DNA of 64,000 nt from Candidatus Yanofskybacteria bacterium RIFCSPLOWO2_02_FULL_44_18. GTDB lineage: Bacteria; Patescibacteriota; Minisyncoccia; 2-02-FULL-40-12; GWA2-44-9. Below the pieces are notes generated by a model, which worked only from the letters and a program-made list of their open reading frames with translations, was not told the DNA's origin and made no database searches. Positions 4,084-56,116 of the stretch are shown one piece after another. The DNA lies in assembly GCA_001794755.1 (NCBI GenBank), contig MGKT01000008.1:11491-75490 (forward strand), written 5' to 3'. The position numbers and the translations under genes were made by a program. Position 1 is the first letter of the stretch. Each line of letters begins with the position of its first letter.

Positions 4084-4098
4084 TAGTATAATTGAAAA

Positions 4099-28198: not shown

Positions 28199-28306
28199 CG
28201 TCGCCGGATAGTCTCATCGGGCACGCATAAAAAGTCTGCTGACTTTTTTGCTCGGACTCGTCGTCAGACCACTCCTCATGGTCCCTCTGAGACTATGCCG
28301 GCGCCG
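28199..28306 (+). repeat. Conserved ~105-nt palindromic element, copy A (15 nt upstream of the dnaK ATG)
   Basis: Core ~77 nt matches the reverse complement of 48421..48519 with 3 mismatches. Terminal arms CGCCGGATAGTCTCA / TGAGACTATGCCGGCG differ from copy B but stay self-complementary. Internal AAAAAGTC-TGCT-GACTTTTTT hairpin. Confidence 0.6.
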
Positions 28307-28320
28307 CTTCATAAGAATAA

Positions 28321-47656: not shown

Positions 47657-48404
47657 CTCTTATATGCCATCTGGTTTGCTTGTTAAAAATCGGGCCCAGG
47701 AGGCCGAACCTTCTTGAACCCGGTTTTTGATAATGATACATGGAAACCAAAGGATAATACACGACTTCAAATCCATTTTCCCAAAACATTTGAGCCCAGT
47801 CAACATCGTTAAAATAGTGGAAGAATGATTCATCCATCGGCCCGACTTTTTCGTAGGCTTCCCGGGATATTAAAATCGCCGATCCCATAAGCCAGTCCAC
47901 GGGTTGAGTTTGCTTCAAATCCGCGTCGGCGTATCTGAATCTGCTAAGCTCCCTCTTCATGAATGGCAGTTTAAACGGCAGGCGCCGATAAATAATTGTC
48001 CAAGGAGAATAGAAGCGAAAACATGAATCCTGGTGCGTACCGTCGAAGTTCAGGAGTTCCGGCCCGAGCATGCCTATTTGGGGTCTGTTGTTCATGTAAT
48101 GGGACATTTTCTCGATTGATCCAGCCAGAGGTGCGATGTCAACATTCAGAATCAGCAGCTGGTCCCCTATCGCCTCCTTCAGCCCGATGTTGTTGGCTCG
48201 TGTATAACCGAGATTTTCTTTCAGCGGGATTAATTTAACTGACGGAAATTCTTCAGTGATTACGGATCTGGTTTCATATTCAGAGGCATTATCAACGGCG
48301 ATAATCTCGTATTTAAAATCTCTCGATATGCTCGCCGTGACCGATTTCAGACAGAGCCGTAAAAGCGGCGGATTTTTGTAGTTCAGGATAATAATAGAAA
48401 GCAT
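47607..48404 (-). CDS. Glycosyltransferase family 2
   Basis: MLSIIILNYKNPPLL...IAVDNAS GT2 N-terminus and a DxD region. Confidence 0.7.
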   Translation of the reverse strand: MLSIIILNYKNPPLLRLCLKSVTASISRDFKYEIIAVDNASEYETRSVITEEFPSVKLIPLKENLGYTRANNIGLKEAIGDQLLILNVDIAPLAGSIEKMSHYMNNRPQIGMLGPELLNFDGTHQDSCFRFYSPWTIIYRRLPFKLPFMKRELSRFRYADADLKQTQPVDWLMGSAILISREAYEKVGPMDESFFHYFNDVDWAQMFWENGFEVVYYPLVSMYHYQKPGSRRFGLLGPIFNKQTRWHIRDGIKYFRKYSGTQVVF

Positions 48405-48420
48405 TGATATATGTTAAAAC

Positions 48421-48519
48421 GCGGAATGGTATCAGAGGGACCACGAGGAGTGGCCTGACGACGAGTCCGAGCAAAAAAGTCAGCAGACTTTTTATGCGCG
48501 CCCGATGAGGCCATTCCGC
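48421..48519 (-). repeat. Conserved ~100-nt palindromic element, copy B (16 nt upstream of the GT2 start, same orientation relative to transcription as copy A)
   Basis: Matches the reverse complement of copy A over ~77 nt with 3 mismatches. Closing arms GCGGAATGG / CCATTCCGC differ from copy A but remain complementary. Confidence 0.6.
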
Positions 48520-48523
48520 GTGA

Positions 48524-49531
48524 TTACTCTACAATTTCCTTAAACATTTTTCTTATATCGCCATAGTCGTCGCCCTTAGGCAATAAAATATAGACCTTAT
48601 TCTCAATGCTCTGATAAAGCAGATTTTCAGTGGACATTACAAATTGAGCGGGCTGGGAATTATTTACCTGCTTGGCTAAATTAATTATCGTTTTTGAGTC
48701 AAATATATTTAAATCAGTGGTAATGTTCTTTCTTATGGAGTTTATTATCTCCAGCGTCTTAATCGGATCGGATATGTAATTCAGCTTCATGACCTTGTCT
48801 TTAATGGCCATGATGACCTGCTGCTGGCGGCGGGAGCGGTCAAAGTCGTTCGTCGAGTAGCGGGAGCGGACGTAGTAAAGGGCGGTCTCGCCATTAAGAT
48901 GATTTTCGCCGGCCGGGATATAGAAACTATTTCCCCATTGATCATTTTCCTCAAAGGGCTTTTCAAGATGGATATCAATGCCGCCTAAGTCGTCGATGAT
49001 GGTTTTGAATGAGGAAAAATCAAAAACAACAACGTTGTCAATGTGAACGCCTGTCAGGTTTGAGAAAATTCTCCTACTGTATCCAAGCCCGTCTTTTTTG
49101 GCCAGCCCCTTTTCGTAACCGGTATTGGCTTTATCCATCTTTCCGCCGATATTAATGTACAGATCCCTGGGGATGGAAACGATGGCTGACTTGTTTGTCT
49201 GTTTGTTATGACTGAAAAGAAGAATAGTATCGGTCAAAAGACCGCCCTGTTCCGCATCGGGATCATCCAGTCCTCTCATGCCTAAAACCAAAATATCCGT
49301 CCTGTTTTCTTCCGGAGTTGGCGTCGGTTCTTCTTGAGCTTGACTAAACGTAAGTATCGTCGCTACCCGATTCCAGAACCCGTTCTCCTTGGCCGTGTTT
49401 ACTTCGATTGTATTGTAAGCCAGGCCCAATTTAACGGCTCCCCAGCCCAAAAGGATAAAGAGAAACAATAATCCCAAAAGAGCCAATTTTCTTTTGGATT
49501 TTTTTTCTTGTAATGTGTTTAATTCATCCAC
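48524..49531 (-). CDS. LytR-CpsA-Psr (LCP) family protein
   Basis: N-terminal TM and an LCP core ILVLGMRGLDD...TDTILL...SIPRDLY...GETALYYVRSR. Confidence 0.8.
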   Translation of the reverse strand: MDELNTLQEKKSKRKLALLGLLFLFILLGWGAVKLGLAYNTIEVNTAKENGFWNRVATILTFSQAQEEPTPTPEENRTDILVLGMRGLDDPDAEQGGLLTDTILLFSHNKQTNKSAIVSIPRDLYINIGGKMDKANTGYEKGLAKKDGLGYSRRIFSNLTGVHIDNVVVFDFSSFKTIIDDLGGIDIHLEKPFEENDQWGNSFYIPAGENHLNGETALYYVRSRYSTNDFDRSRRQQQVIMAIKDKVMKLNYISDPIKTLEIINSIRKNITTDLNIFDSKTIINLAKQVNNSQPAQFVMSTENLLYQSIENKVYILLPKGDDYGDIRKMFKEIVE

Positions 49532-54067: not shown

Positions 54068-55118
54068 TTATTAATTCCAGTATATCATTTCTGAATTTTT
54101 CTCTTGAAAATATTTTGACTGATTTTTTGATTTTCTCCGGATTATAATTCGGATAATTCGCGTCTAACCGGCGTATTCCATCAACAAGGCACTCCGTAAT
54201 GGGGTCATCAAAAAATTCGCCGTTGACGCCCTTCTCTATGATTTCCAAAGCGCCGCCTTTTTTTAAGGCCAAGACCGGCTTTCCAAAACTCATGGCCTCG
54301 ACGGGGGTCAGTCCGAAATCTTCTTCCTGGGGCATTACAAAAGCCCGGCATGATGCATAATATTCGGCTATTTTATCATCACTCAAATGGCCCGTAAACT
54401 TAATGTTGGATTTTGCTATACGACTTAATTTCATCCGATTCGGTCCATCGCCGACAATTACCAGCGGCTTTTTTATTTTGTTAAAAGCATCAATGGCAAT
54501 TGATATGTTCTTGTAATCATAAAGGCGAGAAACGATTAAATAGAAGTCGCCCTGCGAAATCGGAGCATTAGATTTTAATGTTAATGGCGGATATATTACC
54601 TTGGCTTCCCGGCCGTAATATTTGGCGATTCTATTCTTAACATTTTTGGATATAGCAGCGAATTCATCAACTCTGCCAGCCGCCTGTTTGTCCCAGATTC
54701 TCAAAAAGTGCGTTATTAATCGGCCGGCAAGGAACCTTGAATAATTATTATGCATATCCCAAAGCTGGCGGCTGGGACTGTAGCAATAGCATATATGCCT
54801 GGTCCCGGGGCTTACAATAACTCCTTTTGAGAAGACGGCCGATGAGGATATGACTGTGTCATATCCGGAAAAATCGAACGACTCAACCGCCGAAGGCATT
54901 AAAGGAACGTATGTTTTTTGCAGCGGGGAGCATATTAGCGGGAATTTTTGTAGAAAGCTCGCTCTGACATCGGCGTCCGGAAAATGCTTCTTTAAAAAAT
55001 CCGGATTGTAAAAAAGCGTGAAAATCGGAGCGTTAGGAAACATGTCATGCAGTTCCATCAAAACTCTTTCAGAGCCGCTGAGTCTGTATATCCAGTCATG
55101 GACAATGGCAATCTTCAT
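54060..55118 (-). CDS. Glycosyltransferase family 1/4
   Basis: EDFGLTPVEAMSFGKPVLA motif. Confidence 0.75.
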   Translation of the reverse strand: MKIAIVHDWIYRLSGSERVLMELHDMFPNAPIFTLFYNPDFLKKHFPDADVRASFLQKFPLICSPLQKTYVPLMPSAVESFDFSGYDTVISSSAVFSKGVIVSPGTRHICYCYSPSRQLWDMHNNYSRFLAGRLITHFLRIWDKQAAGRVDEFAAISKNVKNRIAKYYGREAKVIYPPLTLKSNAPISQGDFYLIVSRLYDYKNISIAIDAFNKIKKPLVIVGDGPNRMKLSRIAKSNIKFTGHLSDDKIAEYYASCRAFVMPQEEDFGLTPVEAMSFGKPVLALKKGGALEIIEKGVNGEFFDDPITECLVDGIRRLDANYPNYNPEKIKKSVKIFSREKFRNDILELING

Positions 55119-56116
55119 CTTTTGGCAACCACGTTTTTCTTATACGCTTCCAGATTATCCAAAACAATTCCAGTTCCTCGGGCCACGCAGAAAAGCGGGT
55201 CGTCGGCGATTGCGGCCGGAACGCCGGTTATTTTTGTAATAAGCGCGTCAATATTTTTTAATAATGCGCCTCCGCCGGATATTATAATTCCCCTGTCCAT
55301 TATGTCCGCGCAAAGTTCCGGCGGCGTGACTTCCAGCACATTTTTTATAATCTGGACTATCTCTCTCAATTGTTCGCCCATTGCCTCGGTTATTTCATTT
55401 GATGAAATTTCTATGGTCTTGGGATAGCCGGAGGATAAATCTCGTCCCTTGATATTTATTTTTTCTTCGTTGGCCTGTTTAACGGCGCTGCCGATTGATA
55501 TTTTTATCAATTCCGCCGTTCTCTCGCCTATGGCCAGGCCATGTTTGTGTTTTATGTAATCAACAATGGAGGCATCAAGCTTATTCCCACCAACCCGTAT
55601 TGACGCGCAGCTGACTATGCCGCCCAGAGAAATAACGGCCAATTCGGTGGTTCCGCCGCCGATATTCAAAATCATATTTCCGGTAGGATTATTTATCGGA
55701 ATCTTCGCTCCGATTGCCGCCAGCACGGGCTCCTTTACTAGATAAACAGCTTTAGCTCCGGCGTTTAATGTTGATTCGATTACTGCTCTTTTTTCCGTTG
55801 ACGTAATGCCCGCCGGAACTGAAATTAAAACCTCCGGTTTTATAAAGCTTAAAAAACCGCCGGCTTTACGGATGAAATAGCGGAGCATGGCTCCGGTTAC
55901 CTTGAAATCAGCAATAGCGCCGTTGACCAGCGGTTTTGACACGACAATGCTGTCGGGAGTCCGGCCGATCATTTCTTTGGCCAGATTCCCCACGGCCAGA
56001 ACTTTATTGTCTATTACGGAAATTGCAACGACAGAGGGCTCGTTTATCACGATTCCTTTTTTAGGCATAAAAACAACGGTGTTTGTAGTTCCCAGATCGA
56101 TACCTATCTTTTTCAT
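55115..56116 (-). CDS. mreB: Rod shape-determining protein MreB
   Basis: [15 protein letters not shown]... and an actin-like ATPase fold throughout. Confidence 0.85.
   Translation of the reverse strand: MKKIGIDLGTTNTVVFMPKKGIVINEPSVVAISVIDNKVLAVGNLAKEMIGRTPDSIVVSKPLVNGAIADFKVTGAMLRYFIRKAGGFLSFIKPEVLISVPAGITSTEKRAVIESTLNAGAKAVYLVKEPVLAAIGAKIPINNPTGNMILNIGGGTTELAVISLGGIVSCASIRVGGNKLDASIVDYIKHKHGLAIGERTAELIKISIGSAVKQANEEKINIKGRDLSSGYPKTIEISSNEITEAMGEQLREIVQIIKNVLEVTPPELCADIMDRGIIISGGGALLKNIDALITKITGVPAAIADDPLFCVARGTGIVLDNLEAYKKNVVAKR

Follow-up and report, generated by a model that had tools for sequence, protein, structure and literature searches.

A probable non-autonomous family of interspersed palindromic repeats in Candidatus Yanofskybacteria, with one copy between grpE and dnaK

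The element described here is a small structured repeat that occurs twice in a 64,000-nucleotide stretch of DNA from a Candidatus Yanofskybacteria bacterium (contig MGKT01000008.1), referred to below as the window. The first copy (A) is found in the spacer between grpE and dnaK. It begins 95 nt past the grpE stop codon (28104), and its stem terminus (28304-28306) lies 14-16 nt before the dnaK ATG (28321). The second copy (B) occupies a 119-nt spacer flanked by a LytR_cpsA_psr gene, with its stop codon at 48524-48526, and a GT2 glycosyltransferase gene, with its ATG at 48404; here the stem terminus (48419-48421) is again 14-16 nt from the ATG. The positions, orientation and distance to the start codon that an initial annotation, made from the sequence alone, had assigned to both copies are all correct, and the A-run/hairpin/U-run module that it placed in the core is present in each. 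The copies and their parts are as follows.

28199-28310, plus strand: copy A, in the grpE-dnaK spacer, sense to dnaK
28199-28216, plus strand: copy A, 5' strand of the P1 closing stem, CGTCGCCGGATAGTCTCA (minimum free energy and centroid fold, and pair covariation in the family)
28225-28251, plus strand: copy A, P2 central hairpin, GCA-U-AAAAAGUC, UGCU loop, GACUUUUU-UGC (fold)
28229-28249: copy A, A-run/hairpin/U-run module, part of P2
28288-28306, plus strand: copy A, 3' strand of the P1 closing stem, TGAGACTATGCCGGCGCCG, with one bulged G (fold)
48416-48523, minus strand: copy B, in the spacer between the LytR_cpsA_psr gene and the GT2 gene, sense to both
48506-48521, minus strand: copy B, 5' strand of the P1 closing stem, ACGCGGAATGGCCTCA (fold and alignment to copy A)
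48471-48497, minus strand: copy B, P2 central hairpin, identical in sequence to P2 of copy A
48493-48473: copy B, A-run/hairpin/U-run module
48419-48434, minus strand: copy B, 3' strand of the P1 closing stem, TGATACCATTCCGCGT, with two internal mismatches (fold)

Alignment of the two copies gives a shared core of 78 nt with 96% identity, confirming the ~77 nt first noted; its 3 mismatches are all transitions between A and G. A 55-nt core pattern allowing up to 3 mismatches matches only A and B in the window (chance expectation 0.00 from 100 shuffles), and neither repeat finding nor an exhaustive covariance-model scan detects a third copy in the 64 kb. The two are mutually inverted with 20,121 nt between them, in agreement with the ~20 kb previously given. 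Copy A folds at -48 kcal/mol (z = -5.35 vs shuffles) and copy B at -46.2 kcal/mol (z = -5.87). The terminal arms had been described as different in sequence and yet self-complementary. Each pair of arms does form a stem, but the arms of A and B are homologous and fast-evolving rather than unrelated: they have diverged by ~26%, compared with 4% in the core, and several of the substitutions are compensated, for example from A-T to G-C. In copy A a semi-conserved tail, CCGCTT, follows the 3' strand of P1 and reaches 28310. A short peptide encoded by copy A was considered and rejected, as the 21-aa antisense open reading frame (ORF) lacks its ATG in copy B.

Fifteen distinct members of this family, 105-112 bp in size and non-coding, were identified across three Candidatus Yanofskybacteria species by a 20-mer scan of metagenomes and two covariance models. 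The 20-mer scan of metagenome contigs yielded three new copies: C1 and C2, which lie in inverted orientation on either side of a release-factor gene (contig L069), and C3, which lies inside gatA (L074 and L075). The first covariance model (R1), built from these copies, added D1 (L087) as well as E1 and E2 (L014, Yanofskybacteria RIFCSPLOWO2_01_FULL_39_28). It further found F1-F7 in a third, syntenic Rifle species, where five of the seven fall within the 10.4 kb of contig L091. Copy number differs sharply between species. Copies A and B score 115.8 and 103.9 bits with R1, and 77.8 and 78.6 bits with the second model (R2); on rescoring with R2 all 15 members lie at 38-106 bits. In ~0.9 Mb of other Parcubacteria loci R2 finds nothing comparable, and with its filters off it returns generic hairpins only. 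No Rfam family matches the whole window at the gathering score, and nothing relevant is obtained for copy A at E <= 10 or for L091 at E <= 1. Five core patterns searched against viral contigs give either nothing or chance 18-mer matches in high-GC contigs, so there is no sign of a phage origin in that collection. A 22-mer, GACTTTTTTGCTCGGACTCGTC, has no match in genome contigs, this 22-mer being specific to the A/B subfamily. The concatenated open frames of the element have no protein match at E <= 0.01, in a search insensitive enough to miss the insert-bearing GatA (below) that its database contains.

The members are distributed over five kinds of genomic context.

Sense, 10-24 nt before an ATG: A, B, C2, E1
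Sense, 18-22 nt after a stop codon and ~80-120 nt before the next ATG: F1, F6, F7
Antisense, in a spacer flanked by two co-directional genes: C1, F3, F4
In a spacer flanked by convergent genes: E2, F5
Within the gatA reading frame, antisense: C3, D1

The spacers that hold B, C2 and E1 are 119, 114 and 133 nt long, and the element therefore nearly fills them. Its distance of ~15 nt from the ATG is accounted for by insertion into operon spacers that were only ~10-30 nt long. F1 is positioned otherwise, its element ending 82 nt from the dnaK ATG. Since the 15 members occur in both orientations, at 3' ends and within gatA, their contexts are incompatible with one cis function. The gene between C1 and C2 (L069, 2097-2855, minus strand) encodes an RF1-type release factor with PAT and GGQ motifs. 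It is only 252 aa long and lacks the N-terminal domain, and rpmE lies upstream of it.

When folded singly, all 15 members form a P1 closing stem and a three-way junction that carries P2 and P3. P1 comprises 10-23 bp and its sequence is copy-specific. The loop of P2 is fixed as UGCU or UACU, P3 is a two-tier hairpin, and the junction bases ACG and CUC are conserved. Hairpin stability ranges from -34 to -55 kcal/mol in most copies. In a model-based alignment, which leans towards the model, double changes are seen in 30 of the 36 pairs, and 86.8% of the cells are paired compared with 61% in shuffled controls and 35-49% with slid partners; the covariation noted in the first two copies thus holds over the family. 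A structure-blind MAFFT alignment, analysed with RNAalifold, still recovers P2, with six of six core pairs covarying, plus the outer part of P1. Within the E and F subfamilies the P2 pairs also covary while the loop, YUGCUR or CUACUG, is kept.

The arms evolve faster than the core in every close pair. Arm and core identities are 63% vs 96% for A/B, 53% vs 94% for C1/C2 and 57% vs 90% for F1/F2. The arms of A, B, C1, C3 and D1 nevertheless share the pattern CGCCGG-ATGGCATCA and the same bulge. Every member has terminal inverted repeats (TIRs), but their sequence is not conserved between copies as it would be in a classical miniature inverted-repeat transposable element (MITE). A motif TSCRCTT recurs after the stem in C1, C3, D1, E1 and E2, and a motif ending in TTC precedes it; these semi-conserved motifs on either side suggest that the stem is not the limit of the unit, which would be longer by a few bases. 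In A, B, C3 and D1 the folding of the antisense strand is no worse than that of the sense strand, and for this reason the fold does not reveal an RNA-specific strand. A closing stem preserved while its sequence changes had been taken to indicate a functional RNA rather than the end of a MITE. Covariation is indeed strong over the 15 members, but it is still compatible with a mobile palindromic element. Paired changes can arise without selection on RNA, through arm-to-arm correction within a hairpin, and the stems of repetitive extragenic palindromic (REP), enterobacterial repetitive intergenic consensus (ERIC) and Rickettsia palindromic element (RPE) repeats are reported to covary too.

The copy inside gatA is an in-frame insertion. 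The insert-bearing GatA (491 aa; OGN14683.1, GCA_001794485.1) matches a solved GatA end to end (E = 1e-162), and in its linker from LNAYLSVF to LFGIPCAIKDN the antisense strand of the element encodes 35 additional residues, VGMASEGPRRVAGEESEQKSQQTFYARPMMPSD. The tryptic peptides predicted from the insert include VAGEESEQK and SQQTFYARPMMPSDK. Among the best 119 GatA homologues (at most 70% identical; mostly 465-475 aa) none has a homologous insert at this linker, which is 8-15 aa long in most of them and holds unrelated insertions in a few. The insert-bearing gene is intact on at least 20 contigs. D1, from a strain variant (L087), is a second allele at the same gatA site, 40% diverged and partly in a different frame, again without a stop codon. 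The gatA DNA of L087 and L077 is 98-100% identical except for a mosaic segment of ~130 nt (L087 1170-1300; L077 10120-10255), which consists of the element and ~20 nt of flanking codons recoded synonymously (TTAAGC vs CTTTCA, both Leu-Ser). This recoding of adjacent codons points to the import of an old, diverged orthologous allele by recombination over a short tract with the repeat at its centre, and not to a new insertion. In an AlphaFold model of the protein (mean predicted local distance difference test, pLDDT, 68, with parts of the catalytic core low too) the insert (residues 51-78) scores below 50 and adopts no secondary structure, a weak indication that it may form a disordered surface loop.

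Further in-frame insertions of 10-30 aa, unrelated to this one, are found in the same linker of GatA from other Yanofskybacteria (proteins P0013 from L095, P0024, P0010/P0026, P0044, P0027, P0009 and P0101). The insertion in P0013 (L095, 10121-10270) is a palindrome of ~85 nt, with an outer stem GATAGCGGGG/CCCACGCTATGG and an inner hairpin CCCCAAAGG.../...CCTTTGGGG. From these cases the linker seems to be a place where palindromic DNA repeatedly lands or is tolerated.

The grpE-dnaK junction provides an empty site. In the closest relative found (L089, GrpE 75% identical) only CAAAT, 5 nt, separates the grpE stop codon from the dnaK ATG, and relatives have spacers of 3-40 nt. The spacer also holds E1 and F1, and is thus occupied in three species in the same orientation. 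Core identity between A and either E1 or F1 is only 49-54%. Pairs from within a genome are far closer than these same-spacer copies of different species (A/B 96%, C1/C3 96%, E1/E2 91%, F3/F4 98%).

Many other grpE-dnaK spacers contain imperfect palindromes, and that of L013 holds a copy of a repeat family peculiar to L013. Other Yanofskybacteria and Parcubacteria loci have their own interspersed repeat families of 100-160 nt, unrelated in sequence to the A/B family; L019 has several, and further examples are listed here.

L013: 6193-6297, 9834-9943, 10432-10563 and 13967-14098
L014: 6331-6493 and 13215-13376
L017: 100-211 and 9329-9438
L022: 8869-8981 and 13432-13545

In L090 (GCA_964528185.1, GrpE 63% identical) an HSP20 gene (1706-2119) is situated between grpE and dnaK, another sign of the plasticity of this junction.

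Proteins encoded in the window have exact matches in Rifle aquifer metagenomes and in the metagenome-assembled genomes GCA_001794175.1 and GCA_001794715.1, and its GrpE relatives are Candidatus Yanofskybacteria (Parcubacteria, candidate phyla radiation, CPR). C1-C3 and D1 are probably from the same organism as the window, because their contigs share samples with it (JGI 3300002105 and 3300025317), their tetranucleotide correlation with it is 0.975-0.98 (0.80-0.95 for other Yanofskybacteria loci), and in the protein collection nothing closer exists for either GatA or GrpE (next best 70% and 75%, respectively). The window arrangement is kept on L001, L002 and L004 across copy A, and on L006-L009 and at 20 further similar places across copy B. 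Two other contigs (L003 and L005) begin inside copy A. A 598-nt scaffold (L088, ENA ERZ28563808) joins the 5' portion of gatC-gatA, via a hybrid element, to the upstream flank of copy A in reverse complement. It is most simply an assembly chimera, as errors are present at the junction. Metagenome assemblies of this organism are thus broken and wrongly joined at the repeat.

Based on these observations, A and B probably belong to a previously undescribed family of non-autonomous interspersed palindromic repeats, similar to RPE and ERIC, in Candidatus Yanofskybacteria. Of the candidates put forward in the initial annotation, the evidence favours the REP-like element. Such a family would multiply within a genome and so give rise to genome-specific subfamilies with near-identical pairs. 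Insertion would take place into the very short spacers of compact genomes, with occasional in-frame tolerance in a surface-variable linker of a protein (GatA). Spread would presumably require recognition of the conserved core, either by an enzyme acting in trans or in recombination. The stem would need only to pair, and could drift by compensated changes or by arm-to-arm correction. As a by-product, the co-transcribed stable hairpin would probably affect mRNA processing or stability, by analogy with ERIC, Correia and REP elements. The element would not serve as a regulator dedicated to dnaK or the GT2 gene.

Several observations weigh against this interpretation. That three species have an element in one and the same spacer, in one orientation, could point to old vertical inheritance and a retained function rather than to repeated insertion. 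No presence/absence polymorphism is seen within the species, as the element is on every contig that spans A, B or C3. Among the Pfam-annotated genes in ~110 kb of the organism no transposase, RAYT (REP-associated tyrosine transposase), Y1, integrase or other mobilising gene is found, and C1-C3 and D1 are only probably of this organism. Neither a target-site duplication (TSD) nor a fixed target motif is detected at 14 copies with flanks aligned at the outermost base pair. The last result also bears on the MITE that had been named as the competing explanation of the two copies: many additional copies do exist, but they have neither conserved TIR sequences nor TSDs. Finally, the core, P2 and P3 are clearly constrained in sequence and by covariation, which a purely neutral parasite would not need unless the constraint serves its own propagation. 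The asymmetric core, with its three-way junction, UGCU loop and ACG/CUC bases, might be the functional module of a new kind of CPR mobile element, although we regard this as rather unlikely. The module could be recognised as folded single-stranded DNA (ssDNA) or RNA by some enzyme, or be catalytic or guide-like; if so, it would represent a new mechanism of repeat propagation in ultra-small genomes largely without insertion sequence elements. The known self-cleaving ribozymes were rejected as candidates, as CUGAUG-like strings are contained in P1 and none of the ribozyme models of Rfam gives a match.

The same constraint could instead reflect a functional structured RNA or ssDNA module with a role for the host, such as mRNA processing or stability at operon junctions or a protein-bound multi-copy small RNA, with spread being secondary. 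P1, P2 and P3 of the three-way junction covary, and junction and loop bases stay invariant, across ~50% sequence divergence, the core is much better conserved than the arms, copies prefer positions 0-30 nt after stop codons within operons, and G-U pairs are found in P3/P4 on the sense strand. A host-level role is nonetheless unlikely. The element is found in both orientations and, given the folding of the antisense strand in A, B, C3 and D1, shows no clear preference for one strand. An RNA role is not obvious for the in-frame gatA copy, the number of copies changes sharply from species to species, the spacer of the closest relative lacks the element, and in other genomes unrelated repeat families take up the same spacers.

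A cis-regulatory leader for dnaK, the GT2 gene and the RF1-type gene (an RNA thermometer, attenuator or translational operator) had been suggested at first, and the start-proximal sense copies A, B, C2 and E1, the recurrence in the grpE-dnaK spacer of three species and the stable, conserved fold are all in keeping with it. Against this, the ATG and the 14-16 bases upstream of it lie outside the structure, where there is no Shine-Dalgarno (SD) sequence to mask, F1 is 82 nt from its dnaK, and other members are antisense, convergent, at 3' ends or within gatA. In the closest relative the spacer is 5 nt long and holds no element, Rfam offers no match, and the operon already possesses a CIRCE operator ahead of hrcA. 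Members of the E and F subfamilies have not kept the U-run that follows P2, and a terminator scan gives no site at A or B. Taken together, these points make a leader very unlikely. An intrinsic terminator or SPRITE-like element was rejected separately, on the scan result at A and B, the mostly A-U composition of P2 and the loss of the U-run in E and F.

The operator is located as follows.

26899-26925, plus strand: CIRCE operator, TTGGCACTC-N9-GAGTGCTAA, with 1 mismatch, ~20 nt upstream of hrcA (26945)

With this near-perfect CIRCE, the hrcA-grpE-dnaK-dnaJ operon appears to be under canonical HrcA/CIRCE control. Few genes of this genome have SD-like motifs (9 of 48 long ORFs in the window), and their absence near the copies is therefore not special. 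Many window genes show a TATAAT-like hexamer only ~6-12 nt upstream of the ATG (e.g. gene starts at 4098, 21779-23168, 26944, 40416, 43773 and 55114-56116), which, together with the rarity of SD-like motifs, suggests widespread leaderless or very short-leader mRNAs.

It is also conceivable, if highly improbable, that a short conserved core alone inserts, choosing the loops of hairpins already in place (terminators, for instance), and that the arms are target DNA. The much faster divergence of the arms, the lack of a TSD and the many copies just after stop codons are what such a process would leave, but homology is plain among the arms of A, B, C1, C3 and D1, which have a common bulge, and the copy in gatA has carried these arms into a coding linker that lacks a hairpin in homologues. 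That the repeat is a recombination substrate, with A and B driving a 20-kb inversion or serving as an attC- or dif-like recombinase site, is the least probable account and close to negligible: the inverted copies 20.1 kb apart with a 96%-identical 78-nt core, the joining of two different copies in L088 and a conserved single-base bulge in the stems, as in attC sites, are outweighed by the window arrangement on every contig across A or B, none of which shows the inversion once thought possible, by the simpler reading of L088 as a chimera, and by the grounds on which an attC site was rejected, namely ends that by inspection do not fit the order R''(RYYYAAC)...R'(GTTRRRY), no integrase nearby and flanking genes that are housekeeping genes and not cassettes.

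As an interspersed palindromic repeat, the element can be compared with several known systems. REPs are 20-40 nt long, and REPINs are symmetric doublets of them. They have a conserved 5' tetranucleotide and are associated with a RAYT gene, and are presumed to be mobilised in trans by a single-copy enzyme that recognises the hairpin and the short motif. The Yanofskybacteria repeat resembles REPs in being a hairpin defined by structure, with compensatory changes in the stem, no TSD and presumed mobilisation of this kind. Unlike REPs and REPINs, its unit is single, asymmetric and ~110 nt long with a three-way junction, and no RAYT or Y1 gene is present in the annotated neighbourhoods. It differs from RNA thermometers (ROSE, FourU) in that it sequesters neither an SD nor the start codon and has no fixed sense orientation at orthologous loci. 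Correia elements carry conserved TIR sequences and TSDs (TA), whereas the Yanofskybacteria repeat has no conserved TIR sequence and no detectable TSD. Correia/NEMIS elements, classical MITEs of Neisseria, are, like the Yanofskybacteria repeat, short and non-coding and often lie immediately upstream of genes, and their long terminal hairpins in mRNA are cleaved by RNase III (PMC10969869).

ERIC sequences are imperfect palindromes of ~127 bp that occupy transcribed operon spacers in either orientation, with variable copy number and occasional intragenic copies, and orientation-dependent effects on mRNA stability are reported for them (PMC10969869). The Yanofskybacteria repeat is similar in its location in operon spacers, its two orientations, a copy number that varies by species and an intragenic copy. 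ERIC sequences differ in having a conserved central inverted repeat and in being confined to Enterobacteriaceae and Vibrionaceae. RPEs are palindromic repeats of ~100-150 bp, in several subfamilies, from a small host-associated genome. They lie in intergenic regions and in frame in unrelated housekeeping genes, where they add a peptide without destroying the protein, and they have no recognised transposase (PMC10969869). The Yanofskybacteria repeat shares with them its size, a small host-associated genome, the presence of several subfamilies and the lack of a recognised transposase. The in-frame copies C3 and D1 in an intact gatA correspond to the in-frame hallmark of RPEs (PMC10969869). The differences are a CPR rather than an alphaproteobacterial host, a single in-frame site (gatA, two alleles) compared with dozens in Rickettsia, and an asymmetric three-way-junction core with very fast-evolving arms. 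The likeness is one of description, and membership in an RPE family is not claimed.

A full-text literature search found nothing that links MITE- or RPE-like repeats to CPR/Patescibacteria. The element is of a known kind, and the family is new in that, as far as the searched literature shows, no such element had been described from this lineage. CPR/Patescibacteria genomes are usually described as poor in mobile DNA. These genomes are tiny and tightly packed, and here a structured repeat colonises their operon spacers at up to one copy per 2 kb. Its presence explains contig breaks and chimeras in CPR metagenome assemblies, and the covariance model can be reused for a census of the family. The finding also carries a caution, as a conserved, covarying hairpin upstream of dnaK need not be a regulator. 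The RPE-like entry, in frame, into an essential translation gene recalls Rickettsia, another lineage with reduced genomes. The link between genome reduction and tolerated palindromic parasites would thereby extend to a second, unrelated lineage, and such repeats may be a source of new protein loops in CPR bacteria.

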